From: an uncultured Acidobacteriota bacterium
GTDB taxonomy: Bacteria; Acidobacteriota; Thermoanaerobaculia; Multivoradales; UBA5704
Assembly (NCBI GenBank): GCA_963757335.1
Contig: CAVWRJ010000011.1
Location: 71,700-135,699, forward strand
Direction: 5' to 3'
Length of the DNA stretch: 64,000 bases
The notes under the pieces were generated by a model that worked only from the letters and a program-made list of their open reading frames with translations, had not been told where the DNA came from and did no database searches. A program made the position numbers and the translations under genes. Of this stretch, positions 4,826 to 51,558 are shown in pieces. How positions within the stretch are numbered: the stretch's first letter is position 1; each line of letters begins with the position of its first letter.

Positions 4826-4843
4826 TCCAGAAAGGCGGCGGCG

Positions 4844-29240: not shown

Positions 29241-29248
29241 TCGATACC

Positions 29249-29941: not shown

Positions 29942-29960
29942 CGGCGGAGTCCCATGGCGG

Positions 29961-32600: not shown

Positions 32601-32655
32601 TCCGCCCGCGGCTCACCCGGTGGCGCGCCGTCCCAGCGCGCCACCGGGAGGGTCG

Positions 32656-33606: not shown

Positions 33607-34113
33607 ATGAGCGTCGCCCAGATGTTGCTCCCCGAGTTCGACAACGAGATGAAGACCACCCGCCGCGTCCTGGAGCGGGTTCCCGAGGATAAGTTGGACT
33701 GGCAGCCCCATACCAAGTCGATGACCCTGGGCCGCCTGGCGAGCCACCTGGCCGAGCTGGCGGGCTGGGGGGAGTACACCCTGGCCAACGACTCCCTGAA
33801 CCTCTCTCCTCCGGGCGGCCCCCCCTTTACGCCCTTCGATTCGCGGTCGCGCCAGGAGATTCTGGAAACCTTCGACGCCAACGTCCAGAAGACCCGCGCC
33901 GCCCTCGAACAGGCGACCGACGACGCCGCCTTCGCCAAGCCCTGGACGCTCGAGTTCGGGGAGCGCGTGATCTTCACCATGCCGCGCGCCGCCGTGCTCC
34001 GCGGCACGATGTTCAGCCACATCGTCCACCACCGCGGGCAGCTTTCCGTCTATCTGAGACTCAACGACGTGCCGGTGCCGTCGATCTACGGCCCCTCCGC
34101 CGACGAGCAGTAG
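33607..34113 (+). CDS. DinB/YfiT-like (DinB_2) four-helix-bundle protein
   Basis: KLDWQPHTKSMTLGRLASHLAE...MFSHIVHHRGQLSVYLRLNDVPVPSIYGPS is the typical DinB_2 signature (His triad). Confidence 0.8.
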   Translation: MSVAQMLLPEFDNEMKTTRRVLERVPEDKLDWQPHTKSMTLGRLASHLAELAGWGEYTLANDSLNLSPPGGPPFTPFDSRSRQEILETFDANVQKTRAALEQATDDAAFAKPWTLEFGERVIFTMPRAAVLRGTMFSHIVHHRGQLSVYLRLNDVPVPSIYGPSADEQ

Positions 34114-34141
34114 GAGAAAAGAGCCCGGGCCGGCCTCGCCG

Positions 34142-35284: not shown

Positions 35285-36118
35285 CCGGCGTCTTCGCCGC
35301 CATGACCCCGTAGAAACACCGGCCGGTCTCCCGGTCGCGGTAGAACGCCGTCACTTTGTAGCCGGCGCCCAGGTAGTGCTCGAAGGCCCGGCGGGTGAGG
35401 GCGCGCCAGGCGGCCGCTTCGTCGGGGTGCTCCGCCTTCACCTCTTGAATGCTCGCCGGCACCTCGATCCGTACCCGCTCTGCCTCGGGGAGGGGGTCGG
35501 CGACGCTCTGGAGCCCCACGACCCCCCTCCCCCCACGATCGGCGCCGTCGCGAAGCCCTCCCCACCCCCACCGAGCTCCCCGGCGAGCGCCCGGCGCACC
35601 CGTTCGCCACCGATCCGCCAGTCGACGATGAAGCGGTCGGTGCCGATCCCCTCCGCGAGCTCGCTCCCCATCTCTCCGGCGTACATGTCCTCCACGTACT
35701 CGGCGACCTTCGCCCCGAGGCGGTTGAGGTTCAAATGAGCGTTCCGCGCCTCCAGGGGGTCGTAGGTCCAGAGCACCGACTCGATCCCCAGGGGGAGCAG
35801 CAGGTCGCGCTGGAAGCGCTTGAGACGGGCGCCGATGCCGAGGTCCCGCGCGCCGGGCGCCACCGCCAGCATGTGCGACCAGTGGGCGAGACGGCCGCCG
35901 CGCACCCCGGTGAGGCCGAAAACGAAGCCGAGGAGCCGCCCTTCCGGATCGAAGGCCCCGGCCGCCACCCCCCCCACCTTCTGGCAGATCTTGAGGATGC
36001 TCCCCGGCACCGCCTCGGCGAAGCCCTGCCCCCAGGTGGCGCGCTGGAGCTCGACGCAGGCGGCGTAGTCCGCCGTCGAGCTGAGCGGGCGCAGCTCGAC
36101 GGCCGGCAGGGACCCCAC
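35274..36118 (-). CDS. GNAT-fold acyltransferase (candidate N-succinyltransferase partner of NSAR), interrupted by an apparent frameshift at a G6-A-G6 run (about 35522-35536)
   Basis: 36118-35540 frame: VGSLPAVELRPLSSTADYAACVELQRATWG...LAHWSHMLAVAPGARDLGIGARLKRFQRDLL (GNAT acyl-CoA motif region). The 3' part continues in a -1 frame (VRIEVPASIQEVKAEHPDEAAAWRALTRRAFEHYLGAGYKVTAFYRDRETGRCFYGV). GTG start overlaps the stop of the upstream gene (TAGGCGTG). Confidence 0.5.
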
Positions 36119-36120
36119 GC

Positions 36121-36714
36121 CTAGCGGCCTGCCTGGCCCTGGCTCCACGGCGGCACGACGCCGTTCGAGCGGGCGTAGGCGATCGACTGCCCGAGGTGCT
36201 CGTGCATATGGTTGGCGATGACGAACATCGCCTCCCGCACCGTCCCCTCGTGGCCGAAGATCTTGATCGTCCGGTCGAGGTCGGAGTCGGGCGTCGAGTC
36301 GACCACCCGGCGGATGTGGGCGAACGACTGCTGCAGGGCCTCGGCCACTTTGGCCTTGTCGCCCCCCTGCTTCTCCAGATTGGGCACGTCGATGTCCGCC
36401 GGCGGCTTGACGCCCCAGAGCGTCGGCAGGAAGAAGTTGGCGCTCGCGAGATGCATGTAGACCTCCCCCACCGAGCGCACGCCCGGGGCCGGGCGCCAGG
36501 AGTACTTGTCGGCGGGCACCGCCGCGGCCAGGCTCAGGACCTTCTTCTGCACGTCGTCCAGCTGGTGGAGGAACTCGGCGCGGAAGCCGGTCTGCACCTG
36601 CGGCTTCTGGACCGGCGTGACGCTCTTCTGTTGCGGCGTCTGCGCGATAGCCGCGGCGGCGCAGAGGAGAGCGGCGGCGACGGTGGCGAGGGCGGTCTGC
36701 GACTTTATCCTCAT
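36121..36714 (-). CDS. secreted DinB_2-family protein
   Basis: Signal peptide MRIKSQTALATVAAALLCAAAAIAQ; MHLASANFF...NHMHEHLGQSIAYAR His-rich DinB_2 motifs. Confidence 0.75.
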   Translation of the reverse strand: MRIKSQTALATVAAALLCAAAAIAQTPQQKSVTPVQKPQVQTGFRAEFLHQLDDVQKKVLSLAAAVPADKYSWRPAPGVRSVGEVYMHLASANFFLPTLWGVKPPADIDVPNLEKQGGDKAKVAEALQQSFAHIRRVVDSTPDSDLDRTIKIFGHEGTVREAMFVIANHMHEHLGQSIAYARSNGVVPPWSQGQAGR

Positions 36715-36904
36715 GACGGATTCCTCCAATGGGTAGCGATCGGCTGCGGATTCTAGCAGCCCTGGCGGTACTGGGTTCGTTTAAATCCGAGGACGGACGA
36801 CTGGCTGCGCGGAGCGCCCGAAGGAGACCGCCCGCAGGTTCAAACGGGCCCAGGACCGCCCGGCCGTCCTGAGCGCCGCCGCACACCTGTACTAGAATCA
36901 GGAG

Positions 36905-38194
36905 GTGCATCTGACCCTGGCCCTCCTGGCGAGCCTCGGCGCCGCTGGGCTGCTGATCGCCCTCGTCCTGACGCTCGGCCGCGCCGCCTTTCTCGTCCGC
37001 CAGCTCACCTTCCCGCTCTACGTCGCGGCGGCGGCGGCCGGCGTCTACGTCTTCACCCTCTTCCCAGCGGGGCGGAGCCCGGAGGCCGGGCGCGCCCTCG
37101 CCTGGATGCTCCTCTTCCTCGCCGCGGCGGTCGTCCTCCGCCTCCTCGGTCTGTTCGTCTTCGACGTCCACCTGCAGAGCCGCAAGGGGGTGCGCCTGCC
37201 GCCGCTCCTGCCGGCGGTGTCGATGCTCGTCGTCTACCTGCTGGCGGCCCTCATCACCCTGCGGGTGAGCTTCCCGCAGCTCGACATCGCGCCGCTCCTG
37301 GCGACCAGCGCGGTCACCTCGCTCGTTCTCGGCCTCGCCCTCCAGCCGATCCTCGGCAACTTCTTCGCCGGCATCGTCATCACCCTCGAAAAGCCGTTCC
37401 GCTTGAACGACTGGATCAAGGTCGGCGACCACGAGGGGCGGGTGGTGGCGATCAACTGGCGGACCACCCACCTGCGGACGCGCGACAACGACAACATCGT
37501 CATCCCCAACGGCAGGATCGCCGACGACCGGGTCCTCAACTACTACTATCCGCACCCCATGCACCTGGAGAAGGTGCGGGTGGGGATCTCCTACGACACG
37601 CCGCCCTACCGCGCCCGGCGGGCCCTCCTCGAATGTCCCCCGGGGATCGCCGGCGTCCTCGACAAGCCGACCCCCGAGGTCTACGTCGCGAGCTTCGACG
37701 ACAGCGCCGTCCTCTACGAACTGCGGGTCTGGATCGAGGACGTCGCCCAGTCCAACCGGATCGCGAGCGACCTCCGGGCGCGGATCTGGGAGGAGCTGAC
37801 CCGGGCGGGGATCGCCATCCCCTACCCCACCCGCACCGTGAAGCTCGCCCGCCGCGAGCGGCCGGTCCAGCAGGAGCTCCCGAGCGGCGCGCCGCGGCCG
37901 GCCCGGCTCTACGTCGCCGAGGGGGCCGAGCGCGGCCGTACGGTCGAGCTCGACGGCCAAGCGATAATCGTCGGCCGCTCCCGCTCCTCCCACCTCGCCC
38001 TCGCCGACGCCAATGCCAGCAAGGAGCACCTGCGCATCGAATGGACCCCGGAAGGCTACGTCCTGACCGACCTCGGCAGCAGCTTCGGGACCCGGGTCAA
38101 CGGCCAGGCGGCGAGCCGGGTGGTTCTCCACCCCCTCGACCGGATCGCCATCGGCGATACCCTGCTCATCTTCGAAAGTGAAACCCATGCCTGA
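36905..38194 (+). CDS. mechanosensitive ion channel (MscS family) with C-terminal FHA domain
   Basis: Three N-terminal TM helices, MscS core (SLVLGLALQPILGNFFAGIVITLEKPFRLNDWIKVGDHEGRVVAINWRTTHLRT), C-terminal FHA (GRTVELDGQAIIVGRSRSSHLAL...NGTRVNGQ). Confidence 0.85.
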   Translation: MHLTLALLASLGAAGLLIALVLTLGRAAFLVRQLTFPLYVAAAAAGVYVFTLFPAGRSPEAGRALAWMLLFLAAAVVLRLLGLFVFDVHLQSRKGVRLPPLLPAVSMLVVYLLAALITLRVSFPQLDIAPLLATSAVTSLVLGLALQPILGNFFAGIVITLEKPFRLNDWIKVGDHEGRVVAINWRTTHLRTRDNDNIVIPNGRIADDRVLNYYYPHPMHLEKVRVGISYDTPPYRARRALLECPPGIAGVLDKPTPEVYVASFDDSAVLYELRVWIEDVAQSNRIASDLRARIWEELTRAGIAIPYPTRTVKLARRERPVQQELPSGAPRPARLYVAEGAERGRTVELDGQAIIVGRSRSSHLALADANASKEHLRIEWTPEGYVLTDLGSSFGTRVNGQAASRVVLHPLDRIAIGDTLLIFESETHA

Positions 38195-39158
38195 CGAGAC
38201 CTTCCCTGCCACCCTCGGTCCCTACCGCCTCGGCGGCCTCGCCGGCCGCGAGGGTCGCCGCCACTCCGCGACCGCCTATCAGGCGACCGCCCCGGACGGC
38301 CGGGCGGTGGTGGTCGAGGTGATGTCGCGCGCGCTCGCCGCCGACCCGGCGGCGGTCGAGCGCTTCAACCGCGAGGTCGAGAAGCTCGCCGCCATCGAGC
38401 ACCCCAACCTCCTCCGGGTCTTTTCGAGCAGCGAGGACGCCGGCCGGGTCTACCTGGTGCGCGAGGCCTGGGACTGCCCGGCGCTCGGCGACCTCCTCCG
38501 CGAGCGGCGCCCCACGGTCCCGGAGTCGCTCGCGGCGTTCAAGGGGATCTTGAAAGGCTTGGGCCAGCTCCATCAACGGGGGATCGTGCACCGCGACTTG
38601 AACCCCACGACCGTCTTCGTCTCCCACGACCTCTCCCAGGTCAAGCTCGCCGGCTACGGCCTCGGCAAGGCCGACGCCTTGAGTGGGACGACGGGGACCC
38701 TCTCGACCGGCGAGGTGAGCCTCGCCAACATCTACTATCTGGCGCCGGAGCAGGCCGAGGGGAAGCCCTCCGACGCCCGCTCGGACCTCTACTCGGCCGG
38801 GGTCCTCTTCCATCAGCTCTTGACCGGCCGCGCCCCGAGCGCCAAGTTCGGCCTGCCGAGCCAGCTCAACCCGGAGCTGCCGCCCGAGGTCGACAGCCTC
38901 GTCCTGAAGTGTCTGGCCCGCCGGCCGGAGGACCGCTACTCGAACGTCCCCCACCTCCTGGGCGACCTCCTCCAGCTGGAGGAGACCCTCCGCCTGCGCC
39001 TCCTCTCCCAGATCCAGGGGATCTCCCGCTCGACCTCCCGCCTGCTCGGCCAGGAGGAGGGGGGAACGACGAAAAAGAACCCCGCCCTCCTCTGGGTGGG
39101 GATCGGGGTGGTCGTCGTCCTCGTGGCGGCGGTGGCGTTCTTCCTGCTTCACCACTGA
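38178..39158 (+). CDS. membrane-anchored Hanks-type pseudokinase
   Basis: Kinase fold retained (ERFNREVEKLAAIEHPNL, YLAPEQ, DLYSAGV, RPEDRY) but beta3 Lys absent (VVVEVM), catalytic loop HRDLNPTT (Lys to Asn, Asn to Thr), DFG replaced by GYG; C-terminal TM LLWVGIGVVVVLVAAVAFFLL; start overlaps the mscS-FHA gene by 17 nt. Confidence 0.8.
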   Translation: MKPMPDETFPATLGPYRLGGLAGREGRRHSATAYQATAPDGRAVVVEVMSRALAADPAAVERFNREVEKLAAIEHPNLLRVFSSSEDAGRVYLVREAWDCPALGDLLRERRPTVPESLAAFKGILKGLGQLHQRGIVHRDLNPTTVFVSHDLSQVKLAGYGLGKADALSGTTGTLSTGEVSLANIYYLAPEQAEGKPSDARSDLYSAGVLFHQLLTGRAPSAKFGLPSQLNPELPPEVDSLVLKCLARRPEDRYSNVPHLLGDLLQLEETLRLRLLSQIQGISRSTSRLLGQEEGGTTKKNPALLWVGIGVVVVLVAAVAFFLLHH

Positions 39159-39271
39159 GGGCCTGCAAGACGCATATCCATGGGTTGCTATTCCTCTATC
39201 TTCGCGGTAAGGTCAGATTTCGCTCGGCCCGCCTCGGCGGGCTACCCACTGACTGAGAAAAGGAGTTCACC

Positions 39272-39538
39272 ATGGAGCGAGCCAATATCGCCTCAAACCG
39301 CACCTCGAAGTTCCGCCTTGCCATCGCCTTGACCGGAGTCCTCGGGGCCGGCAGTCTCGCGTTCGCCGCTACCGCCCCAGCCGCGACCCCGGCCGCCAGG
39401 TGCGTCCCCAACCCGAACCCCATCTGCTACCAGATCTACAAGCCGGTGATCTGCAGCAACGGCAAGGTGTACACCAACCAGTGCTACGCCGACGCGGATT
39501 GCGCGAAGAACTGCGTGCCCTACACTCCCCCGGCGTAG
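39272..39538 (+). CDS. small secreted Cys-rich protein with Kazal-like protease-inhibitor motif
   Basis: Signal peptide, then C..NP.C.....PVICSNGKVYTNQCYADADCAKNC matching the Kazal core (C-x-[ST]-[DN]-G-x-[TV]-Y-x-N-x-C ... C). Confidence 0.55.
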   Translation: MERANIASNRTSKFRLAIALTGVLGAGSLAFAATAPAATPAARCVPNPNPICYQIYKPVICSNGKVYTNQCYADADCAKNCVPYTPPA

Positions 39539-39613
39539 CGTCGTAGCTCGATTGTCCGGGACCCCGGGAGCCGGGGTCCCGGCCTTCCCCCACCTTCGGC
39601 TAGACTACCCCGC

Positions 39614-40435
39614 ATGGCAGACCTCAAAGGCAAGACCCTGTTCATCACCGGCGGCAGCCGCGGCATCGGCCTCGCGATCGCGCTCCGCGCCGCTGCCGAC
39701 GGCGCCAACGTCGCCATCGCCGCCAAGACCGCCGAGCCCAATCCGAAGCTCCCGGGGACGATCCACACCGCCGCCCGGGAGGTCGAGGCGGCGGGCGGCA
39801 GGGCCCTGCCACTCCAGATCGACATCCGCGACGAGGAGCAGGTGCGGGCCGGGATCGAGAAGACGGTCGAGACCTTCGGCGGGCTCGACATCCTGGTCAA
39901 CAACGCGAGCGCCATCTTCCTCGCCGGGACGCTCGAAACCCCCATGAAGCGCTTCGACCTCATGTGGTCGGTCAACGGGCGCGGCACCTTCGCCTGCTCG
40001 CAGGCCGCGATCCCCCACTTGAAGCGCTCGGCCAACCCCCACATCCTCAGCCTCTCGCCGCCGCTCAACCTGAACCCCAAGTGGTTCGCCAACCACTGCG
40101 CCTACACCATGGCGAAGTACGGCATGAGCCTCGCCGTCCTCGGAATGGCGGCGGAGTGGAAGGACGACGGCATCGCCGTCAACGCCCTCTGGCCGCGCAC
40201 CGCCATCGCCACCGCCGCCCTCGCCATGCTGGGGGGGATGGTCAAGCCCGAGAACTGCCGGAAGCCCGAGATCGTCGCCGACGCCGCGCACGTCGTCCTC
40301 ACCCGGGACAGCCGCTGCTGCACGGGGAACTTCTACATCGACGACGAGGTGCTGGCGTCGGCGGGGGTCAAAGATCTCGATCGCTACGCCGTCCAGCCGG
40401 GAACCCCGCTCTTCAACGACTTCTTCGTCGACTAG
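39614..40435 (+). CDS. SDR family NAD(P)-dependent oxidoreductase
   Basis: TGGSRGIG, NNAS, YTMAK catalytic motif. Confidence 0.85.
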   Translation: MADLKGKTLFITGGSRGIGLAIALRAAADGANVAIAAKTAEPNPKLPGTIHTAAREVEAAGGRALPLQIDIRDEEQVRAGIEKTVETFGGLDILVNNASAIFLAGTLETPMKRFDLMWSVNGRGTFACSQAAIPHLKRSANPHILSLSPPLNLNPKWFANHCAYTMAKYGMSLAVLGMAAEWKDDGIAVNALWPRTAIATAALAMLGGMVKPENCRKPEIVADAAHVVLTRDSRCCTGNFYIDDEVLASAGVKDLDRYAVQPGTPLFNDFFVD

Positions 40436-40615
40436 CGCTGACCGGCGCTTCTGGGGGGGGAGGAGCTTCCCCGGGAAGCCATAAAGATGTCGTAAAGACT
40501 CGCATAGCTCTATATCAATACGCACCCGATCGGAGCTACAGTAGGTTCCAGCCAATCCGCCGTAGTACTTAAGGATGCCCGCGGGAGATCCCGTGGGATT
40601 TTGGAGGGAGAACCT

Positions 40616-41146
40616 ATGTGGACCCGGGTGAGGGACCGCCAGCGGGGTTTCACCTTGATCGAGCTGCTGATCGTCGTCGCCATCATCGGGATCATCGCCG
40701 CCCTGCTCATTCCGAACTTCCTGGACGCGCTCCAGAAGGCGAAGCAGAAGCGGACGGTGGCCGACATGCGAAACGCCGGTACCGCCATGTTCTCCTGGCT
40801 GACCGACCAGGTCGGCGCCGCCGCCGCGGGCGCCGCCGCCACCACGGTCGACCTGACGAGCTACGGCACGGTGACGGACGGCAGCAACCTGCTCTCGGTC
40901 CTCGTCCCGCAGTATCTCCAGGCGGTGCCCGAGGTGGACGGCTGGAAGACCAACTACGACTACTACATGAAGACCGCCACCCCGCTCGATCCGCAGGTCA
41001 TGGCCATCCACAGCTACGGCCGCGACAAGAAAAAGCAGCTGACGACCGCGATCAACGTCACCTCCTTCGATCCCACCGACTACGACCAGGACATCCTCTG
41101 GGCCGACGGCTTCTTCGTCCGCTGGCCGCAGAAGGTCACCCCCTGA
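40616..41146 (+). CDS. type II secretion / type IV pilus pseudopilin (prepilin-type N-terminal cleavage/methylation domain)
   Basis: GGAGGGAG RBS; MWTRVRDRQRGFTLIELLIVVAIIGIIAALLIPNF is a class III signal peptide; ORF-track frame opens at 40601. Confidence 0.8.
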   Translation: MWTRVRDRQRGFTLIELLIVVAIIGIIAALLIPNFLDALQKAKQKRTVADMRNAGTAMFSWLTDQVGAAAAGAAATTVDLTSYGTVTDGSNLLSVLVPQYLQAVPEVDGWKTNYDYYMKTATPLDPQVMAIHSYGRDKKKQLTTAINVTSFDPTDYDQDILWADGFFVRWPQKVTP

Positions 41147-41147
41147 T

Positions 41148-41390
41148 TTAAGGCCTGAACGCCGCGACAGACAGGGCGCCCCGCGACGCCTCGACAGGCA
41201 CCTCCACAGACGCTGGCCTCGGCCGCGCTCCGTCCAGCTTCACCAGCTGGGTGGGCGGCCGCAGGCCCGCGGGCGAGACATGCCCCGGGACCACGAAGTG
41301 CCAGAGCCCGGCCACGACCAACGCCAGGATCAGAGTCCCGCAGCCGAACGGGATTCCACAGCAGCAACCACGTACCTGGACGTTCGACAT
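41148..41390 (-). CDS. hypothetical small membrane protein (Cys cluster CCCGIPFGCG)
   Basis: ORF track only; TM-like LILALVVAGLWHFVV. Confidence 0.25.
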   Translation of the reverse strand: MSNVQVRGCCCGIPFGCGTLILALVVAGLWHFVVPGHVSPAGLRPPTQLVKLDGARPRPASVEVPVEASRGALSVAAFRP

Positions 41391-41470
41391 GGCGGGAGAG
41401 CTCCTTCCTCAAAGAGGCCGTACCGCTACGGCCGCCGAGATCCGATGCAAGAGCAGCTCCACGCCCCCCC

Positions 41471-41550
41471 CGATGTCGACGATGTCGGACTCTGTCGGAC
41501 GATGTCGGGAGGTGTCGAACGGTGTCGGTTTATGTCGATTATGTCGGTCA
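41471..41550 (+). promoter_or_regulatory. eight direct repeats of NNTGTCG(G/A)NN at 9-10 bp (helical) spacing, candidate transcription-factor/enhancer binding array
   Basis: cgATGTCGac gATGTCGgac tcTGTCGgac gaTGTCGgga ggTGTCGaac ggTGTCGgtt taTGTCGatt aTGTCGgtca, followed by inverted repeat CTGCCGG-N13-CCGGCAG. Confidence 0.6.
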
Positions 41551-41598
41551 CTGCCGGTTTTTCACCGACGCCGGCAGGCGCCCCCCGCGGAGCCAGCC

Positions 41599-41614
41599 GG
41601 GCACGGCCCTTGCT
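41599..41614 (+). promoter_or_regulatory. candidate sigma-54 (-24/-12) promoter GGGCACG-N4-TTGCT
   Basis: Matches TGGCACG-N4-TTGCW with correct GG/GC spacing; about 85 bp upstream of ATG 41700 and 50-130 bp downstream of the TGTCG repeat array. Confidence 0.45.
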
Positions 41615-41699
41615 TTTTCAGCTTTTCGATTCGTTGTTCCATCTCTGTCGTAAGTGTTACTGAGAGACCATTCTCAGAATCGAAAGGAAGGGGTGCACC

Positions 41700-42929
41700 A
41701 TGAAGATTCGTTTCGCTGTGTTGGTATTGACCGTCGCGGCGAGCTCGCTCTGGCTCGCCGGGAGCGGTGGTTCGCAGCCGGTGCTCGCCGCGACCGCCGG
41801 GAGGGTCGCCGCGCCGGCCGCCTGCCAGTTTCCGCTCGGCTGGGTGGGTACGCCGGCGGAGACCGCCTGGCGGCTCTTCGTCGCGACGAACTGCCCGGCT
41901 GGCGGCACTCAGCTCGTCTGGGAGACCTGGATCGAGCAGGACGCCCTCTATCCCGCGAGCGGATCGGCAGCGCAGAAGGGCGCCAAGGCCAAGCGCCTCC
42001 ACGGGAGCCCGCTGTTCAAGGCTTTGATGGCCCGGAAGAACGGCATGACGGCCGAGCTCTCCCCGGCCACGGAGTGCAACAAGATGGGGAGCCCGCCGTC
42101 AAACGTCGTCCCCAACGCCACGGTCTGCGAGGAGGTGCGGCTCAACCCCTCGGCCCGGACGTTCGTCCAGACCAAGGGCTACCAGGTGCGCTCCGGCCAG
42201 ATCAAGGCCGCCCAGTCCGGCACCAACATCCAGTTCCCGACCGCCGGGATCGAGGTCAAGGTGGACTGGATTCCCGCCACCGACTTCGCGACGCCTTTCA
42301 CCTGCGCCAACCCGCCCCAGGGCGTGCACGTCGAGACGATCGACGGCGCCTGCTACGCCATGGCCGGCATGCACCTGATCTCGAAGATCGCGCCGAACTG
42401 GATCTGGGCGACCTTCGAGCCCCAGAGCATGGAAACCAACCCCAATCGCTGCATCACGTTCGGAGCGTGCAACGACCCCTGGGGCTCGGTCCCGCCGACG
42501 AGCAGCGGCGGCGCCGGCGGCTTCACTCAGCTGACCCCCGCTCTCCAGGCCCTCATGAAGAGCGCCAACCTCGCGCCGGAATTCCTCAACTACCGCCTGG
42601 ACGGCGTCCAGACCCAGTTCGGCACCGCCGCCAACCCGACCCTCCTCGGCAACTCGATCATCGAGGGCGAGAACGTCGGCATGACGACCGGCACGGCGTC
42701 CTGCATCACCTGCCACTCGGTCTCCACCGTCAAGACCGACGGCACGGACGGGATCACCATTCTGGGGAGCTTGCCGACGCCGCCGGTCGGGCCGGAGTAC
42801 GTCGTCCCCCAGGGCTGGATCGCGCGGGACTTCGTCTGGTCGCTGGCGCTCGCCTGCCCCGGTGGGATCCAGAACTGCTCGTCGTCCGTAGCGGCGGCGA
42901 AACCGGCGAAGAAAACGAAGACGAAGTAA
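41700..42929 (+). CDS. secreted protein with a single CxxCH heme-binding motif (putative c-type cytochrome domain), Lys-rich C-terminus
   Basis: GGAAGGGG RBS; signal peptide MKIRFAVLVLTVAASSLWLAGSGG; ASCITCHSV (CxxCH); many conserved Cys. Confidence 0.6.
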   Translation: MKIRFAVLVLTVAASSLWLAGSGGSQPVLAATAGRVAAPAACQFPLGWVGTPAETAWRLFVATNCPAGGTQLVWETWIEQDALYPASGSAAQKGAKAKRLHGSPLFKALMARKNGMTAELSPATECNKMGSPPSNVVPNATVCEEVRLNPSARTFVQTKGYQVRSGQIKAAQSGTNIQFPTAGIEVKVDWIPATDFATPFTCANPPQGVHVETIDGACYAMAGMHLISKIAPNWIWATFEPQSMETNPNRCITFGACNDPWGSVPPTSSGGAGGFTQLTPALQALMKSANLAPEFLNYRLDGVQTQFGTAANPTLLGNSIIEGENVGMTTGTASCITCHSVSTVKTDGTDGITILGSLPTPPVGPEYVVPQGWIARDFVWSLALACPGGIQNCSSSVAAAKPAKKTKTK

Positions 42930-42939
42930 CGATGGACGT

Positions 42940-43420
42940 CCGGGCGGGATCGGCGGTGCCGGTCCCGCTGCCACGGCGCGAGACACGAACGGCTCCAGCG
43001 AGACACTAGCGACCCTCCACGAGACACGAAGCGTCGACGGCGAGACACGATGTGTTGGCGGTGGGACGCGAAGTTCCGACGGTGGGACACGAAGCGTCGG
43101 CGGTGGGACACGAAGCTTCGGCGGTGGGACACGCGCGTCCTGCCGCGAGACACAGCCGGCCGGCAGCGAGACACAGCCGGCCGGCAGCGAGACACAGCCG
43201 GCCGGCAGCGAGACACAGCCGGCCGGCACGCCGTGGCCCGCGGCAGGCGCGTGGTGACTCGCAGCAGGCGCGTAGTGACTCGCGGCAGGCACGTAGTGAC
43301 TCGCGGCAGGCGCGTCGTGACTCGCGGCAGGCGCGTCGTGGCCCGCGGCAGGCGCGTGGTGGCCCGCGGCAGGCATCTGGTGTCTCGGTCCAACCGAGGG
43401 GTCTTACCTGCCGCGCTCGC
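42940..43420. repeat. about 23 tandem 21-bp repeats in three sub-families: GCGAGACACAGCCGGCCGGCA x4 (perfect), GGTGGGACACGAAGCGTCGGC-like x4, CGCGGCAGGCGCGTNGTGACT-like x7
   Basis: Direct reading; occupies the convergent intergenic region between the CxxCH-protein gene and etfA; stop-free in several frames, producing artefactual heptad-repeat ORFs. Confidence 0.8.
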
Positions 43421-43507
43421 GACAACCCTTCCTACCGTCATCCTGAGAGGAGCCCTAGCGACCGAAGGACCTGGGCGGGGGAGAAGGTGCGCCCAGGCCG
43501 CGCTGCA

Positions 43508-44494
43508 CTATCCCTTGGCTTCCTTGATCGCCGCGGTGAGCGCCGGCAGGATCTCGTGCAGGTCGCCGACGATGCCGTAGTCGGCGACGGTGAAGATCGG
43601 GGCGCCGGGGTCCTTGTTGATGGCGACGATGGTCGTCGAGCCCTTCATCCCCACCAGGTGCTGGATGGCGCCGGAGATCCCCGCCGCCAAGTAGAGCTTG
43701 GGGGCCACGGTCTGACCGGAGGAGCCGATCTGGCGGTCGCGCGGCAGCCAGCCGTTGTCGATCACCGGCCGGCTGGCGCCGATCTCGGCCCCGAGGGCCT
43801 TGGCGAGCTCCTCGATCACCCCCATCTTGTCGGCCCCGCCCACCCCGCGGCCCACGGCGACGATGATCTCCGCCTTGGTGAGGTCGATCTTCTCCCCCCC
43901 CACCTGCTCGACACCGAGGACCTCGCGATCGGGCTTGACCGCCGAGAGGTCGACCGCGAGCGGTTGAATCGGCGCTGGAGCCGCCCCTAAAGCCGCGCCC
44001 CCCTGGAAGGCGCCGGACTGGACCGAGACGAGAACCGTGCCAGGACCCTTGACCCGCACCTTCGCCTGCATCTTGCCGCCGAGGATGGGCCGACTCCAGA
44101 GCAGATCATCCGCCCCTCCGGAGAAGCCGGTCACCTCGGGGAGGAGCCCCGCCCCCACCTCCTGCGCCAGCCGGGGGACGTAGTCGACCGACTGGTAGCT
44201 GTGGGGGAAGACGACGAAATCGGGCGCCGCCGCCCGGATCGCCGGGGCGAGGGCCGCCACGTAGGCGCCAGGGGTGTAGGTGCCGAGCGCCGGGGCGTCC
44301 GCCAGGTGGACGGCGGCGAGATCGCGCTTCGCCACCTCCGCCGCGGCGCCCTCCAGACCCGCTCCGAGGAGCACCGCCTCGGCCTTCCCGCCGCCGAGCT
44401 CCGCCGCCAGCTTCTGAGCGGCGGCGATCGCCTCCCAGGACATCCGCGCGATCTGGCCCTCGCGCTGCTGCAAGACCACCCAGATCTTCGCCAT
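43508..44494 (-). CDS. etfA: electron transfer flavoprotein subunit alpha
   Basis: Full-length match to EtfA including the FAD-binding C-terminal domain ([37 protein letters not shown]). Confidence 0.9.
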
Positions 44495-45289
44495 CTAGAA
44501 AATCCTCGCTTCGGTGCGCAGTTTCTGGACGAGGGCCGCCGCCTGCTGCTTCGGGTCGCCCTCGAGCATCTGGGCCCCGGTGCCGCTGTCGGGCAGGGCC
44601 ACGGAGACGATCTCCAGCCGCGAGCCGGCCGCCCCCAGCTGACCGGGGTCGAGCCCGAGATCGCCGGGGGACACCTCGGCGATCTCCTTTTTCTTCGCCG
44701 CCATGATCCCCTTGAGCGAGGCGTAGCGCGGATGGTTGATGCCAGCCTGGATTTCGAGCACCGCCGGGAGCTGGATACGGACGATCTCGTTCATCCCGCT
44801 CTCCATCTCCCGGGTCACCCTGGCGCTCTTGCCGTCCGCTTCGAGCTCGACCCCCATGACCAGCCAGACATGGGGCCAGCCCAGCTCGCCGGCTAAAACC
44901 GAGCCGGTCCCGGCGTAGCCGACATCGTCCGACTGCGAGCCGGTGAGGACGAGGTCGAAGCTCTCCCGCTTCATGGCGGCGGCCAGGGCCCGGCCGGTCG
45001 CCAGGGCGTCGCCACCGAGGAAAGCCGGATCTTTGAGGTGGATCGCCCGCGCCGCGCCGACGGCGAGGCCCTTGCGGATCGCCTCCCGGACCCGCTCCGG
45101 ACCGAGGCTCACGAGGACCACCTCGCCGCCGGTCTTCTCGGCCAGGGCGAGCCCCTCCTCCAGGGCATACTCGTCGCTCTCGTTGATGACGAAGGGCAGG
45201 TCCTCCTCCTCCAGCCACCGCCCGTCGCGGCTGACGCGGAGCCGCGCCTCGGTGTCGGGGACCTGTTTGATGCAGACCGCGATCCTCAT
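44495..45289 (-). CDS. etfB: electron transfer flavoprotein subunit beta
   Basis: MRIAVCIKQVPDTEARLRV... canonical EtfB N-terminus; adjacent to etfA. Confidence 0.9.
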   Translation of the reverse strand: MRIAVCIKQVPDTEARLRVSRDGRWLEEEDLPFVINESDEYALEEGLALAEKTGGEVVLVSLGPERVREAIRKGLAVGAARAIHLKDPAFLGGDALATGRALAAAMKRESFDLVLTGSQSDDVGYAGTGSVLAGELGWPHVWLVMGVELEADGKSARVTREMESGMNEIVRIQLPAVLEIQAGINHPRYASLKGIMAAKKKEIAEVSPGDLGLDPGQLGAAGSRLEIVSVALPDSGTGAQMLEGDPKQQAAALVQKLRTEARIF

Positions 45290-46694: not shown

Positions 46695-46743
46695 TGCCCG
46701 TCGCCCCGAGCGTGAAAGGTCCGGTCTGCTCAGGCGGCACGTC

Positions 46744-49700
46744 CTAGAGCTTGAAGGAGTAGGTGCCAACGAAGTCGTTACTGGGGCTCCCCACGGTCAG
46801 GCTATAGGTGCCGCCCTTGGTGAGGGTGATGTTCCCGACGTCCCCTTCGAACGGAGCGCTGAAAACCTGCTGACCGCTGTCGTCGGTCAACGTCCAGCTG
46901 ATCCGGAAGGTGCCGCCGGCCAGGTAGTCGAAGTAGACCGTCTGCCCCGCAGCCGCGGTGAACGTGTAGACGTCCATCGTCCCCGGAGTCTCGATCCGCC
47001 CTGCCCCCGCGACCGGCACCCCGTCCGCGACCGTGTCGCCGATCGAGATCGCGAAGGTCTGCGGCGGCGGCACGTCCCAGAGCTTGAAGGAGTAGGTGCC
47101 AGAGAAGTCGTTACCGGGGCTCCCCACGGTCAGGCTATAGGTGCCGCCCTTGGTGAGGGTGATGTTCCCGACGTCGCCTTCGAACGGAGCGCTGAAGACC
47201 TGATGTCCGCTGTCGTCGGTCAAGATCCAGCTGATACGGAAGGTGCCGCCGGCCAGGTAGTCGAAGTAGACCGTCTGCCCCGGGGCGGCGGTGAACGTGT
47301 AGACGTCCATCGTCCCCGGAGTCTCGATCCGCCCCGCCCCCGCGGCCGGCACCCCGTCCGCGACCGTGTCGCCGATCGAGATCGCGAAGGTCTGCGGCGG
47401 CGGCACGTTCCAGAGCTTGAAGGAGTAGGTGCCCGTGAAGGCATTGTTAGGGCTCCCCACGATCAGGGTATAGGTGCCGCCCTTGGCGAGGGTGATGTTG
47501 CCGACATCGCCTTCGAACGGAGCGCTGAAGACCTGCTGCCCGGTATCGTCGGTCAATATCCAGGCGATCCGGAAGGTGCCGCCGGCCAGGTACTCGAAAT
47601 AGACCGTCTGCCCCGCGGCGGCGCTGAAGGTATAGGCGTCCATCGTCCCCGGAGTCTCGATCCGCCCCGCGCCCGCAGCCGGCATCCCGTCCGCGACCGT
47701 GTCGCCGATCGAGATGGCGAAGGTCCGCGGCGGCGGCACGTCCCAGAGCTTGAAGGAGTAGGTGCCCGTGAAGGCATTGTTAGGGCTCCCCACGGTCAGG
47801 GTATAGGTGCCGCCCTTGGCGAGGGTGAAATTCCCGACGTCGCCTTCGAACGGAGCGCTGAAGACCTGCTGCCCGGTATCGTCGGTCAATGTCCAGGCGA
47901 TCCGGAAGGTGCCGCCGGCCAGGTACTGGAAGTAGACCGTCTGCCCCGCGGCGGCGCTGAAGGTATAGGCGTCCATCGTCCCCGGAGTCTCGATCCGCCC
48001 CGCCCCCGCAGCCGGCATCCCGTCCGCGACGGTGTCGCCGATCGAGATGGCGAAGGTCCGCGGCGGCGGCACGTCCCAGAGCTTGAAGGAGTAGGTGCCC
48101 GTGAAGGCGTTGTTGGGGCTCCCCACGGTCAGGGTATAGGTGCCGCCCTTGGCGAGGGTGAAATTCCCGACGTCGCCTTCGAACGGAGCGCTGAAGACCT
48201 GCTGCCCGGTATCGTCGGTCAATGTCCAGGCGATCCGGAAGGTGCCGCCGGCCAGGTACTGGAAGTAGACCGTCTGCCCCGCGGCGGCGGTGAAGGTATA
48301 GGCGTCCATCGTCCCCGGAGTCTCGATCCGCCCCGCCCCCGCGGCCGGCACCCCGTCCGCGACGGTGTCGCCGATCGCGATCGCGAAGGTCTGCGGCGGC
48401 GGCACGTCCCAGAGCTTGAAGGAGTAGGTGCCGACGAAGCCGCTGCTGGAGCTCCCTACGGTCAGGGTATAGGTGCCGCCCTTCCTGAGGGTGATGTTGC
48501 CGACGTCGCCTTCGAACGGAGCGCTGAAGACCTGCTGCCCGCTGTCGTCGGTCAACGTCCAGGCGATCCGGAAGGTGCCGCCGGCCAGGTACTGGAAGTA
48601 GACCGTCTGCCCCGCGGCGGCGGTGAACGAATAGCGATCGATTTCCCCGGCGACGGCGATCGCGGCGTCGATCTCCTGGCCGATCGCGATGTTGCGGCCC
48701 AGGGGATCGGTCCCCTGGGCGACCTCGGTGCCGTCGTTCACCCCGTCGCCGTCGGTGTCGGGGTTGTGCGGGTCGGTACCCAGGATCGTCTCGGCCACGT
48801 CCGGCAGGCCGTCGCCGTCGCTGTCGAGCGGATCGGGATCGCCCAGGTGAGCCTTCGGCAGCTCCATGCTCGTGCCGTTCGCTCCGGCGAGGAAGTAGGT
48901 AGTCGCGACCTGGAGCGGCTGCGTCTGGAGGTACGAAACCCGGTAGAACGTGGTCGGCTGGAGGACCATGGTGTCGAAAACTCCGGTCCCCCCCAGCCGG
49001 CCGCGCTGCACGGTGGTGCCGTTGACCGGCGCGAGCGCGTAGTAGAAACGGGTGGGGGCGGGCATCAGAGCGGTCAGGTCGCCGATGAACTGGGGCCCCT
49101 TGATATAGCCGTCCCAGGCGCTCTGCCAACCGCGGCGCGCCAGCTCGGCGCTGGTGTCGGACAGGTTCTGACCGGCGGTCACGATGGCGTCGTAGTCGGC
49201 CTGCGGCAGCTGGCTCGCGGCGATCTGGTTCATCCGATCGACCAGGGCGGAGACGTCGGCCGACGTGAGCGTCGCCGGCAGGGGCACGGCGAGGAGGGTT
49301 GCCCGCTCGGCCGTGGTGATCTGGCGGCCCCCGGGGCTCGCGGGTGCGAGAGCCTGCCCGAGGGCAGCGACGAACGGATCGAGCTCGGGGGTCATGGCCT
49401 TCCGCCACTTCGGCGAGCCGTTGACGGTGTCGAACAGCGTGGCGAGCGCGGCATTGAGAGCGTCCTGCTCCGAGAACGGATCGGCGGCGACCGTCGCCTG
49501 CACCCGTGGCTGGAGGCGCTCGCGGACCCGGTGGATGCCGGAGCAGGACTGGTCGACGCAGCTCTGGAAGGTATTGATGGGTCCGGCGACGTCCATGGCG
49601 CAGTCCACGGCATCCATCACGCTGGTGATCGCGATCCCCAACGGGCCGGAGAGGGGGACGCATCCCAGGCCGGAACTGCCGACATTCCAAGCGATCGAGC

Positions 49701-51558
49701 CCCAGCCGCAACCCTCCGCGGACCGGCACTGCGCCGCGATGGAGCCGATTCCGTTGCCGACGCTCAGCGCACAGCCGATCCCTGGAATGCTCCTCGCGAG
49801 GCTCTTCCCCACCGCGTCCTCGACACGCGAGATGACTAGCGAGGAGGAGCAATCCCCGAAGCCCCGGAAAATATCCAGCGCTTTCGGGACACAGCCCGGG
49901 CAAGGGCCGCTGCCGTCGCCCGCCCCACCGCCGTTCGCGCTGCTGCCCGGCTGCGCGGCGTGCCAGCCCGGGGTCAGGATGCCGTAGCCCGGGTCCGAGC
50001 AGACGAGAGTGCCGTCGGCAGAGATGGTCATGGGGCCCACGACCTCCCAGCGGCCGGCCGCGTGGTTGAAGCTCCAGAGGGCGCTCTTGGCGCCGGCCGC
50101 CAGAGTCTGGCCGGTCTTGGGATCGGGTAGATTGGGGAAGCATACCGGGGCCGGGGCGTCGAAGTTCGAGGGCCCGTCGGTCTGGACGGTGATGACGAGC
50201 GGGAAGGTGAGGCCGGGCGGCAGCTTGCCGGGCAGACGGTCGGGCGGCACCGGCGCGATCCCCGCCTGGCCGCCGTGGGTGCCGTCGTTGGCGAAGAGCG
50301 AGCCTGCCGGCACGGTCAGCTGCACGCTCGCAAACTGCGGATACTGGGCGAGGATCGAGGGCGCGAAGTGGAGCACCGTGGGCGCCGTGTTGCTCACCGG
50401 CTGCAGGGTGCCGGGGACGATCAGCGGCAGGTAGGAGGTGCCGATGTTCGTCGACTGTCCGGGGACCGGGTCCCAGGCCTTGCCCACGTAGGGATAGTAG
50501 GCCCCCGGAGGCACCCCGTTGGTCGCCGTCCGGCCGTCGACGTGGACGAAGAACCGCTGGCCCGGTGCCGGGTCGAGGCAGAAGTTGCCGTCGGCACCGG
50601 TCGTGGCCCGGAGGGTCGCCTCGGCGCCGTCGACCGTGATCGTCGCGCCCTGAAGCGGGTTGTCGACCGAGTTGCCGCTGCCGTCGACCGCGAGCTCGGA
50701 GGCCACCACCCGGCCGCAGACCGAGGTGCCGGGGACGACGGTCAAGTCCAGGGTGCGGAAGGAGAGGACGCGAGTGCCCCCCGGAGCGCCGTCGGCGTCG
50801 GCGTCGACCGGGCGGCCACGGCGGTCGCGCAACTGGCTGCCATCGATCGTGACATCGACCTCCGCCGCGGTAGGGAGGAGGTCGTGGTAGAAGAGGGTGA
50901 CGCTCTTGGCGTCGGTCGAGATGTAGAGCCGGGCCGGCAGGTCGGTCCCTCCCGAGCGGGCGTGGATCGCGGCGGTGGTGACGCTCGTGGGATCGAGGGT
51001 GCCGTTGAAGTGAAGGATCGTCTCTCGCGTCATCGCCACGTCGGCCTCGGAGTCGGTCGGGCTGCTGGTGGCGAGGGTGACCAGGGGCTCGGGGGCGAAG
51101 TAGCCGTAGATGTCGAAGACGAGATGGACCGTCCCCGCCCCGGTGACGACCGGGTAGGCCTGCACGGTGCCGGAGCCATCGGCCGCGAGCGGCAGGATGG
51201 CGTTGTTGGTGCGCGTCAGGCCCCGCTTGAGGTTGATGGAGCTGGCGAGCGGACGGGTCCCGTCGCCCGGGAAAAGGGTGATGAAGCCGTCGCCGCTGGG
51301 AGAGACCACGGCGAGGTTCGCCACCACGGCGGTAGCGTCGGCGGGGACCCCGCATCGGCCGGTGACGGTGAAATTGCGCGGGATACCCGAGATCAGGGCA
51401 GGGCCACCGAAAGGCCCGTCCACGTAGCGGGTGTCGAGAAGCCGACAGGGGGAAACGGTATAGAGGGAGACACCGCCATCCGCCTTCGCCCAGTCAGCGA
51501 GCCCCATCCAGTGCAGAAAAGCCAGCGCAAAGACGACCGCCCAACGACGTCCCGCCAT
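46744..51558 (-). CDS. giant secreted repeat protein (1604 aa): N-terminal ~125-aa domain shared with the 17792-22726 protein, acidic Ca-binding (thrombospondin-type-3-like) repeats, about 7 C-terminal tandem PPC-like (pre-peptidase C-terminal) domains
   Basis: Signal peptide MAGRRWAVVFALAFLHWMGLADWAKA; DSDGDGLPD...DTDGDGVNDGTE; repeated GRIETPGTMDAYTFTAAAGQTVYFQYLAGGTFRIAWTLTDDTGQQVFSAPFEGDVGN..LAKGGTYTLTVGSPNNAFTGTYSFKLWD units. Confidence 0.85.
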   Translation of the reverse strand: MAGRRWAVVFALAFLHWMGLADWAKADGGVSLYTVSPCRLLDTRYVDGPFGGPALISGIPRNFTVTGRCGVPADATAVVANLAVVSPSGDGFITLFPGDGTRPLASSINLKRGLTRTNNAILPLAADGSGTVQAYPVVTGAGTVHLVFDIYGYFAPEPLVTLATSSPTDSEADVAMTRETILHFNGTLDPTSVTTAAIHARSGGTDLPARLYISTDAKSVTLFYHDLLPTAAEVDVTIDGSQLRDRRGRPVDADADGAPGGTRVLSFRTLDLTVVPGTSVCGRVVASELAVDGSGNSVDNPLQGATITVDGAEATLRATTGADGNFCLDPAPGQRFFVHVDGRTATNGVPPGAYYPYVGKAWDPVPGQSTNIGTSYLPLIVPGTLQPVSNTAPTVLHFAPSILAQYPQFASVQLTVPAGSLFANDGTHGGQAGIAPVPPDRLPGKLPPGLTFPLVITVQTDGPSNFDAPAPVCFPNLPDPKTGQTLAAGAKSALWSFNHAAGRWEVVGPMTISADGTLVCSDPGYGILTPGWHAAQPGSSANGGGAGDGSGPCPGCVPKALDIFRGFGDCSSSLVISRVEDAVGKSLARSIPGIGCALSVGNGIGSIAAQCRSAEGCGWGSIAWNVGSSGLGCVPLSGPLGIAITSVMDAVDCAMDVAGPINTFQSCVDQSCSGIHRVRERLQPRVQATVAADPFSEQDALNAALATLFDTVNGSPKWRKAMTPELDPFVAALGQALAPASPGGRQITTAERATLLAVPLPATLTSADVSALVDRMNQIAASQLPQADYDAIVTAGQNLSDTSAELARRGWQSAWDGYIKGPQFIGDLTALMPAPTRFYYALAPVNGTTVQRGRLGGTGVFDTMVLQPTTFYRVSYLQTQPLQVATTYFLAGANGTSMELPKAHLGDPDPLDSDGDGLPDVAETILGTDPHNPDTDGDGVNDGTEVAQGTDPLGRNIAIGQEIDAAIAVAGEIDRYSFTAAAGQTVYFQYLAGGTFRIAWTLTDDSGQQVFSAPFEGDVGNITLRKGGTYTLTVGSSSSGFVGTYSFKLWDVPPPQTFAIAIGDTVADGVPAAGAGRIETPGTMDAYTFTAAAGQTVYFQYLAGGTFRIAWTLTDDTGQQVFSAPFEGDVGNFTLAKGGTYTLTVGSPNNAFTGTYSFKLWDVPPPRTFAISIGDTVADGMPAAGAGRIETPGTMDAYTFSAAAGQTVYFQYLAGGTFRIAWTLTDDTGQQVFSAPFEGDVGNFTLAKGGTYTLTVGSPNNAFTGTYSFKLWDVPPPRTFAISIGDTVADGMPAAGAGRIETPGTMDAYTFSAAAGQTVYFEYLAGGTFRIAWILTDDTGQQVFSAPFEGDVGNITLAKGGTYTLIVGSPNNAFTGTYSFKLWNVPPPQTFAISIGDTVADGVPAAGAGRIETPGTMDVYTFTAAPGQTVYFDYLAGGTFRISWILTDDSGHQVFSAPFEGDVGNITLTKGGTYSLTVGSPGNDFSGTYSFKLWDVPPPQTFAISIGDTVADGVPVAGAGRIETPGTMDVYTFTAAAGQTVYFDYLAGGTFRISWTLTDDSGQQVFSAPFEGDVGNITLTKGGTYSLTVGSPSNDFVGTYSFKL
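47000..48650. repeat. about 5-6 near-identical (over 90%) 330-bp tandem DNA repeats within the giant gene, encoding the PPC-like domains
   Basis: Visible long exact matches, e.g. ccagagcttgaaggagtaggtgcc...gatccgccccgcccccgc recurring every about 330 bp. Confidence 0.8.

Follow-up and report, generated by a model that had tools for sequence, protein, structure and literature searches.

The repeat array lies in a 578-bp gap of the window, by which we mean the whole 64,000-nucleotide stretch of DNA analyzed. Two genes converge on this gap, one encoding a predicted secreted protein of 409 aa and the other, etfA, encoding electron transfer flavoprotein alpha (Table 1), and the original prediction of a convergent intergenic location was therefore correct. 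ETF-alpha homologues assign the window to Acidobacteriota, class Thermoanaerobaculia, and a protein 100% identical to its ETF-alpha is encoded on a 299-kb MAG contig. ORFs were assigned as genes from codon-position GC. The 409-aa protein matched no Pfam family, and orthologues of 412–421 aa are called in the relatives L045 and L265. The neighborhood is chromosomal, with genes for an MscS-FHA protein, a Ser/Thr kinase, an SDR, a pilin-like protein, etfAB, a glutaredoxin and a second SDR. Each of the two converging genes is followed by its own terminator-like hairpin outside the array. The hairpin of the 409-aa gene appeared in both the minimum-free-energy and the centroid RNA structures, and that of etfA is conserved in L043 and L044. 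Both lack a U tract, and the terminator scan of the array region returned 0 U-tract (canonical) sites, whereas an intrinsic bidirectional terminator consists of a GC-rich hairpin with a U tract right after the gene. In addition, no sigma-70-like promoter was found at the array region.

Table 1. Features of the main array, its flanking genes and the second array, in window positions
Feature	Position	Strand	Details
Y1/HUH transposase-like (RAYT-like) remnant	28069–28307	-	About 80 codons, frameshifted; located by tblastn to the 309-aa gene of L264; adjoins sister array
Sister array	28460–29240	.	Degenerate, about 780 bp; GGGAC/GAGAC cores on both strands at 21, 42 and 62-bp spacings
Gene for 409-aa predicted secreted protein	41700–42929	+	Complete ORF, GC3 0.92; converges on array
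Terminator-like hairpin	42943–42969	+	12-bp stem; 14 nt past the stop of the 409-aa gene
Left-arm block 1	42977–43059	+	4 heterogeneous units, core CGAGACAC; first unit 20 bp
Left-arm block 2	43060–43143	+	4 units GGTGGGAC(A/G)CGAAG..., i.e. GGTGGGACACGAAG-type
Left-arm block 3	43144–43227	+	4 perfect copies of GCGAGACACAGCCGGCCGGCA (TRF)
Right arm	43228–43389	-	8 inverted units: CGCGAGTCAC, CGCGGGCCAC or ACCGAGACAC, then ..GCGCCTGC spacer
Terminator-like hairpin	43468–43499	-	Directly after the etfA stop codon
etfA, electron transfer flavoprotein alpha	43508–44494	-	Pfam ETF_alpha 1.4e-35, ETF 6.2e-31; converges on array
etfB	44495–45289		Adjoins etfA

Laid out in register, the array proper comprises 20 head-to-tail units at 42977–43389 (about 413 bp), and the 21-bp register is strict: the step between units is 20 bp once and 21 bp everywhere else. 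The unit length corresponds to two helical turns. On the plus strand, 12 of the 20 units (42977–43227) carry the core CGAGACAC/TGGGACAC, also written CGAGACAC or TGGGAC(A/G)C, and the other eight are inverted units of the same kind, reading GTGACTCG, GTGGCCCG and GTGTCTCG. The consensus unit consists of a GC-n-GCGRGNCAC core, in which G.G.CAC is nearly invariant, followed by a free spacer of 9–11 nt. The units are arranged as three consecutive blocks and then an inverted arm, which is the reverse complement of the left-arm unit type (about 14–15 of 21 positions identical), so that the whole array forms an imperfect palindrome. Tandem Repeats Finder (TRF) reported period-21 arrays at 42978–43050, 43023–43133, 43145–43228 and 43220–43374. 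That at 43145–43228 has 4.0 copies of GCGAGACACAGCCGGCCGGCA with a 100% match, confirming the four perfect copies noted earlier. Moreover, the window contains nine matches to three successive CGRGNCAC cores at a 21-bp period. Every match lies in the array, those to the right arm on the minus strand, and shuffled sequence would give 0.00. The original prediction had described about 480 bp of three interleaved 21-bp families. The period holds, but the extent is shorter, the families follow one another as blocks with no interleaving, and the third is inverted. The array is present in five independent assemblies and is therefore not an assembly artefact.

The coding capacity of the array was then evaluated. 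Every reading frame had been expected to be open; instead, three of the six frames are stop-free, two contain one stop and one contains six stops. A search of 5.8 billion protein clusters with the ATG-initiated translation across the array gave no homologue at E ≤ 0.001, and the array ORFs gave no Pfam match above cut-off, only sub-threshold low-complexity matches. A conserved repeat protein, the finding that the original prediction had set against itself, was thus looked for by homologue and Pfam searches and not found. Since, furthermore, both flanking genes are complete and are followed by their own hairpins, the array is non-coding.

Copy number was compared among close alleles obtained via protein-cluster members; the ETF-alpha metagenome scan gave no close relative among the matches listed, the best being 83% identical. 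With units counted as etfA-proximal arm plus distal arm, and identity measured on etfBA DNA against the window, the window allele has 8+12 units (20), L268 about 16+6 (about 22; 96.9%), L043 and L044 11+5 (16; 95.7%) and L265 5+8 (13; 95.9%). The array thus occupies the same junction in five independent assemblies of close relatives (95.7–96.9%), and L043 and L044, which come from two datasets, are identical over 335 bp. It was absent in the relatives at or below 89.5% identity (L045, L046, L047 and L266), which have other genes at the junction. Because close relatives differ in unit number at a single junction and more distant ones have no array, it is a true hypervariable minisatellite, as had been suggested, and by definition a VNTR, its copy number being polymorphic among close relatives. 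The same absence indicates that the array is dispensable for the neighboring genes.

The alleles also indicated which parts of the array are old. The outer three or four units are recognizably alike in all alleles, and the inner blocks differ. Block 1, whose units recur at the distal edge of L043, L265 and L268, is the old outer edge and is kept in all four alleles. Block 2 is an expansion specific to the window genome: among the alleles compared, the GGTGGGACACGAAG block was found in the window only, with a single copy in L268. Block 3 is a recent expansion, as GCGAGACACAGCCGGCCGGCA has four perfect copies in the window, one or two in L268 and diverged copies in L043 and L265. Conversely, CGCGAGTCACGACGCGCCTGC is present in seven perfect copies in L268 and in one at that place in the window.

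The junction itself is a plasticity hot spot, since relatives carry other genes, islands and MITE-like insertions there. L045 has the four-gene ETF block in the opposite orientation, and its junction is taken up by genes for HipA and GmrSD plus a different 20/21/41-bp array. In L048 (85.7%), an unrelated eight-unit 21-bp array directly follows etfA and precedes a tyrosine-recombinase fragment (Pfam Phage_integrase) whose C-terminus looks like that of an integron integrase. In L265 and L268, MITE-like insertions lie between etfA and the array.

The distribution of changes within units was analyzed using units taken by register alone from the four alleles (n = 69, 52 distinct), with changes counted on a minimum spanning tree. 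The 8-nt core (positions 3–10) received 22 of 126 changes versus 48 expected (P = 4e-7), and the six positions C3, G4, G6, C8, A9 and C10 received nine versus 36 expected (P = 2e-9). G4 and C8 are invariant, and spacer positions vary in up to 62% of units. When the units of the window and L043 were paired by order, 0 of 33 differences fell at the six core positions. Moreover, although the spacer has diverged by about 50%, the units stay in the 21-bp register for 19 steps in a row. Homogenization of whole units cannot yield this core-sparing pattern, which needs either selection on the core or core-dependent amplification. A CRP-type GTG-N8-CAC palindrome and a DnaA box were considered as identities of the core and rejected on inspection, since the partner half-site that they require is missing. 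Within the window, sequence outside the arrays shows no enrichment of the core, which was therefore also rejected as a dispersed oligomer of the Chi, KOPS or uptake-sequence type.

Related arrays were sought by a pattern scan covering one genome per species. As the pattern fixed six of the eight core positions, only two free positions test core sharing; with that reading, the core CGGGACAC was shared by four of five Thermoanaerobaculia arrays and by seven of 70 other period-21 arrays among the matches listed (binomial P about 5e-4). These five listed Thermoanaerobaculia arrays belong to species other than that of the window and are made of heterogeneous 21-bp units; the array of L123, for example, comprises 37 units that keep strict register and form three blocks whose orientation alternates. 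Most of the matches listed were 7-bp repeats and coding repeats, including many (CGAGNCA)n heptamer arrays. A higher-order repeat of a heptamer was rejected as the origin of the 21-bp unit: lag-7 identity is 0.23–0.45 in four-unit blocks of the related Thermoanaerobaculia arrays, and in the window units heptamers 2 and 3 are, by eye, unlike heptamer 1. The related arrays lie 5' or 3' of unrelated housekeeping genes, in either orientation, which suggests action at the DNA level rather than in a strand-specific manner. A conserved neighbor gene for the family was rejected, the neighbors being unrelated housekeeping genes such as ffh and those for PBP1A and SNase.

Long non-coding arrays were also located in related contigs without reference to sequence, and their periods were all 21, 42, about 62 or 10 bp. 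Those with a period of 21 or 42 bp and different cores were found in L048, L045, L264 (19 units) and L254 (42 bp), and the cores GGATCTC (L048), GGGAAAGCTTTCCC (L045) and TCCGGAC (L264) are unrelated to that of the window array. The two-turn period thus characterizes the lineage more broadly than does the core of the window array, and the window array belongs to a lineage-wide set of intergenic 21-bp arrays in Thermoanaerobaculia. Because other arrays of the lineage have unrelated cores, the shared period may reflect something besides one specific protein. Beyond the lineage, phage contigs bear GGGACAC arrays with a 21-bp period beside AT-rich DNA. Among the matches listed, Nocardioidaceae (Mumia and Aeromicrobium) carry direct-then-inverted 21-bp arrays at several loci per genome. 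These are likewise intergenic and consist of CGGGTCAC or CGAGTCAC units followed by inverted GTGACCCG or GTGACTCG, but they occur in another phylum, have near-equal arms, and overlap with their outer ends the stop codons of converging genes. Common descent with the Nocardioidaceae arrays is not implied, because the search pattern imposed the core.

The kinship with a second array of the window, at 28460–29240, that had been claimed from a shared core was supported. GRGACWCGAAG occurs six times in the window versus 0.23 expected, five of the six occurrences falling within the two arrays, and a single 500-bp bin of the sister array contains 21 GRGAC/GTCYC cores, compared with a mean of 2.8 for the window; distances of 21 and 42 bp occur between these cores. 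The sister array also includes GTCCCGGGAC palindromes. L264, which shares a 596-kb contig with L265 and matches window 29248–42182 at 95–96% identity, has no sister array at the syntenic position: in the window the array occupies about 800 bp between an SDR gene and a fragment of a Y1/HUH transposase-like gene, and L264 has 56 bp there. In L264, an intact 309-aa gene of this type directly follows the SDR gene, and its product scored 31 bits against Pfam Y1_Tnp (cut-off 23) and 45 bits against NCBIfam REP_Tyr_transpos, below the cut-off of 80. The window copy is truncated where an element has inserted; genes for a large serine recombinase and a type IV coupling protein form the end of this element, and DNA homology between the window and L264 stops at 28082. 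A location of the sister array between converging genes was considered and rejected, because the 3' part of the 619-aa recombinase ORF overlaps the transposase-like fragment on the opposite strand. The Y1/HUH (RAYT-like) homologue is a candidate partner protein of the arrays. The link is suggestive, since REP elements flank their RAYT genes, but weak, as the intact L264 gene has no array and no inverted repeats on either side.

Taken together, these results point to a non-coding, fast-evolving VNTR of a lineage-wide 21-bp family, REP/BIME-like, composed of helically phased, predicted protein-recognition sites and turned over by slippage, a reading to which we give about an even chance. The core would be recognized by a protein that binds or nicks DNA sequence-specifically, and the array would be a row of docking sites along one helix face, with one site per two turns. 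Whole units are gained and lost rapidly, most likely by replication slippage or unequal recombination, while the outer units remain in place and the core is protected from change. Turnover by slippage, or possibly by site-specific nicking and rejoining, would keep the period. The array would thus act at the DNA level, like REP/BIME clusters or iteron and centromere arrays, and not as RNA or protein, with the Y1/HUH (RAYT-like) homologue beside the sister array as a weakly linked candidate partner. The suggestion that this is a protein-binding array accordingly gained indirect support from the strict register, the avoidance of the 8-nt core by variation and the recurrence of the core in other Thermoanaerobaculia. 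Several observations speak against this explanation. Besides the unrelated cores of other 21-bp arrays in the lineage, the unflanked L264 gene with its NCBIfam score below cut-off, and the two free positions on which core sharing is tested, the units have none of the GTAG-plus-hairpin anatomy of REPs, and in relatives the array stretch tolerates MITE-like elements and islands, as expected for weakly constrained DNA.

The strongest rival is a neutral or selfish minisatellite that arose by tandem duplication in a permissive intergenic spot and drifts by slippage, with no protein reader and no function. Variation of unit number in every close relative, absence of the array at or below 89.5% identity, the MITE-like insertions and genomic islands in the same gap, nearby arrays of the same period with unrelated cores, and the missing sister array in a 95–96% identical genome are all consistent with such drift. 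Drift and homogenization of whole units, however, leave unexplained why changes avoid eight contiguous positions (P = 4e-7), and G.G.CAC is kept across both arms, three sub-families and four alleles. Moreover, CGGGACAC is common to the listed arrays of other Thermoanaerobaculia species in four cases out of five, and the register survives 19 steps of a spacer that has diverged by about half. We therefore regard neutrality as rather unlikely, though it deserves to be taken seriously.

A bolder form of the protein-recognition reading is that the arrays constitute an undescribed repeat system, in Thermoanaerobaculia and, convergently, in Nocardioidaceae, in which a putative dedicated protein reads the protected core, CG(R)G(N)CAC, of strictly 21-bp, phased units. 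No description of such arrays was found in the literature searched. One possibility for the dedicated protein is a domesticated transposase of the Y1/HUH type with nicking and rejoining activity at the core; another is a chromosome-organizing protein. Either would drive the gain and loss of units and account for the fixed period, making the system a tandem-array counterpart of REP/RAYT. We put this forward as a speculative proposal that is unlikely to hold in full.

An RNA element was also evaluated, in which the arms are transcribed from the converging genes and form a long hairpin serving as a bidirectional terminator, a 3'-end stabilizer or a source of small RNA. For either strand, the predicted RNA fold joins the right and left arms in a single long, imperfect hairpin (z = -3.9 and -4.4). 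In each arm, the sense strand of the neighboring gene carries the core as CGRGNCAC, and the direct-then-inverted arrays of Nocardioidaceae start at the stop codons of converging genes. Nevertheless, a hairpin already lies between each stop codon and the array, and neither a U-tract terminator nor a promoter was found at the array. Core positions 5 and 7 differ between the arms with no compensatory change, and arm length is neither equal within an allele nor correlated across alleles (8+12, 16+6, 11+5, 5+8). Related arrays also lie upstream of genes and antisense to them. Rfam 15 gave nothing at gathering scores for the whole window and nothing at E ≤ 1 for 42850–43560, and no tRNA or tmRNA genes were found; a known RNA family was rejected on these grounds. 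The small-RNA locus proposed earlier thus found no support in Rfam, in promoter- or terminator-like sites, or in the placement of the arrays, and an RNA function appears improbable.

We consider equally improbable a relic of a mobile or extrachromosomal element, whether the iterons or partition centromere of an integrated plasmid or a MITE with multi-site inverted ends. Direct followed by inverted repeats at a two-turn period do recall iteron or centromere arrays as well as transposon ends with multiple sites; beside the sister array lie a transposase-like gene and an integrated element with a serine recombinase and a type IV coupling protein; the region is an insertion hot spot; and the phage arrays mentioned above have the same period. 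On the other hand, no rep, par or transposase gene lies within 10 kb of the main array, no AT-rich unwinding region is present (GC 0.68–0.71), and neither a target-site duplication nor defined termini were seen. Fast change in unit number and arms of up to 16 units are unlike fixed transposon ends. A plasmid or phage origin of the array sequence was rejected, as blastn in distant mode gave no match among 72,556 plasmids and 50,697 phages.

Finally, translation of the array as a heptad-repeat protein is effectively excluded: the unit length is a multiple of three, half of the frames are stop-free and ORFs of 139–283 aa span the array, but beyond the empty homology searches, translation of the inverted arm would give a peptide repeat of an unrelated kind, the array ORFs overlap the real flanking genes antisense, and no gene is called across the array in L043, L265 or L268.

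If the core is a protein-recognition site, as the preferred reading of a phased, protein-recognized VNTR predicts, the arrays would represent a new repeat–protein pair in a large uncultured soil lineage. Independently of that, the array is a ready strain-typing marker (VNTR) for the clade. It explains the breaks of short-read contigs at this place, and gene callers may emit spurious heptad-repeat ORFs from it. It also sits at a junction where relatives took up islands, MITE-like elements and toxin or defense genes, and such arrays may flag plasticity hot spots.

The array was also compared with known systems. CRISPR loci have unique spacers between repeats and cas genes or a leader, whereas here the units are contiguous, with no spacers, and no cas domains were found; the array does not belong to the CRISPR type. 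Mycobacterial MIRUs are likewise intergenic tandem repeats whose copy number differs among close strains. MIRUs are 40–100 bp long, lie inside operons, are partly translated and do not form two inverted arms, and we know of no protected sub-unit core described for them.

Iteron and centromere arrays (the 22-bp iterons of R6K, the 20-bp parC repeats of pSK41, R1 parC and F sopC) resemble the array in architecture, with a helical-turn period, a core plus spacer, and head-to-tail repeats that sometimes form two oppositely oriented sets. By analogy, this likeness would imply that a single protein binds cooperatively along one DNA face. Iterons, however, need a rep gene, an AT-rich element and DnaA boxes, none of which adjoins the GC-rich array in its chromosomal housekeeping setting, and a partition centromere needs parA/parB or parM/parR, whereas the ORFs from 29 kb to 52 kb contain no such Pfam family. 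The copy number of the array is also hypervariable, unlike that of iteron and centromere arrays. Lacking rep and par genes as well as an AT-rich region, the array is neither an iteron origin nor a centromere.

REP/BIME elements of Enterobacteria and Pseudomonas, which form an intergenic dispersed family, also share features with the array: a short conserved motif with a variable remainder, copies clustered in both orientations, frequent placement at the 3' ends of genes, and presence or absence that varies between close relatives. A fragment of a Y1_Tnp-like gene adjoins the sister array. BIMEs bind host proteins (IHF, gyrase and Pol I) and influence termination and mRNA decay. REPs are imperfect palindromes of 20–40 nt with a 5' GTAG, in alternating orientation with linkers, whereas the array consists of contiguous head-to-tail 21-mers with the core GCGRGNCAC, no GTAG and no hairpin common to the three sub-families. 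Because it has no GTAG and no hairpin inside the unit, the array is not a member of REP/BIME, and its strict two-turn phasing with direct and inverted arms is an anatomy unlike theirs. In a RAYT system, a single-copy gene is flanked by its cognate repeats; here, a fragment lies beside the sister array, and the intact L264 gene, scoring 45 bits against a cut-off of 80, is unflanked. REPs have many dispersed intergenic copies; here, two arrays with a shared motif lie within 64 kb, and the same core occurs in four other listed Thermoanaerobaculia genomes.

Arrays with a 21-bp period were found at further loci of Thermoanaerobaculia. On the contig of one relative carrying the main array at the etfA junction, a second locus (L264) holds 19 units in strict register, with TCCGGACG cores first, followed by TCCGGAAC..GTGGAAAGTCT. 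Alternation among the first ten units produces a 42-bp higher-order repeat, and the 81-aa ORF within the array is output of the gene caller. The longer array of L123, a locus from the core-pattern scan, is flanked on both sides by copies (n = 2) of a ~150-bp palindromic element, whose arms contain TAGGAC/GGGAC repeats ~10 bp apart. The window itself holds a further small array with the main array's period of 21 bp, and a 10/20-bp repeat of the ATGTCGGA / TGTCGGTTGC type (5–6 copies), which keeps its position among relatives with identities as low as 89% and may have a regulatory role as an array. Coordinates of these and other features are collected in the table.

Repeats and neighboring features in the window and at related loci
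Feature	Coordinates	Details
19-unit array, strict 21-bp register	L264 19163-19560	flanked by ABC-2 permease and Ham1-like genes, which converge on it
37-unit 21-bp array	L123 2141-3190	three blocks, orientation alternating
21-bp unit ACCGCCGGACTCCCGGCGAAG, three copies	window 59953-60016	directly 3' of gene 58696-59925
10/20-bp tandem repeat	window 41471-41548; L045 2530-2584; L264 630-689	upstream of 409-aa gene
21-bp array unrelated to main array	L048 11083-11600	directly 3' of etfA; GGATCTC/GGAGCTC..TGAGCTTC
MITE-like insertions	L265 6997-7400; L268 3625-4110	between etfA stop codon and main-type array
Integrated element	window 23509-28355	ends in type IV coupling protein (995 aa) and large serine recombinase
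Second mobile-element-like module	window 667-9611	GC lower, 0.50-0.66
Surface-protein-like gene, 1604 aa	window 46744-51558	TSP3, Ig-like, PPC domains
Phage contig repeats	L037 2100-2450	six or seven GGGGACAC units, 21-bp spacing, variable spacers

The etfA side of the junction carries insertions in two of the relatives with the main array (L265 and L268). These MITE-like sequences have G/C-rich terminal inverted repeats (CCCCCCTGGGAGGGGG...) and share their left end but differ in their interiors. In the more distant L048, the unrelated 21-bp array is followed downstream by a 97-aa C-terminal fragment of a tyrosine recombinase (Pfam Phage_integrase), which by eye looks like an integron integrase. 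Several small ORFs, all on the same strand, lie beyond this fragment and may be gene cassettes.

The serine recombinase of the integrated element contains Resolvase and Recombinase domains. The element appears to have inserted into the Y1/RAYT-like transposase gene, of which a fragment remains at 28069-28307; homology between this fragment and the intact L264 gene ends at 28082. Where the 619-aa recombinase ORF truly stops is uncertain, since its 3' part and the fragment overlap on opposite strands. The second module encodes a LexA/S24-like repressor, a HicA toxin, a Replic_Relax protein and a TraG/TrwB-like ATPase. The surface-protein-like gene, with a 333-bp coding repeat (5.7 copies, 46733-48634), is flanked by the SDR and PilZ genes, direct neighbors of each other in L265 (95.9% identical), and is therefore an inserted or lost gene.

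Outside this phylum, intergenic arrays occur at several loci per genome in Mumia, Aeromicrobium and one other member of Actinomycetota (L084, L085, L093, L114, L122, L130, L151, L175 and L182). Each comprises 3–7 units of CGGGTCAC or CGAGTCAC at 21-bp spacing, then a similar number inverted, and extends at both outer ends into the stop codons of converging genes. Heptamer tandem repeats, (CGAGCCA)n, (CGGGCCA)n, (CGAGTCA)n and (CGAGACA)n, were present in many unrelated phyla among the genome-scan matches listed (L064-L183), some building 21-bp higher-order repeats (L099 and L161). The phage-contig units are intergenic and adjoin an AT-rich stretch; their likeness to the main-array core may be coincidental, and the region resembles an iteron-containing phage origin.
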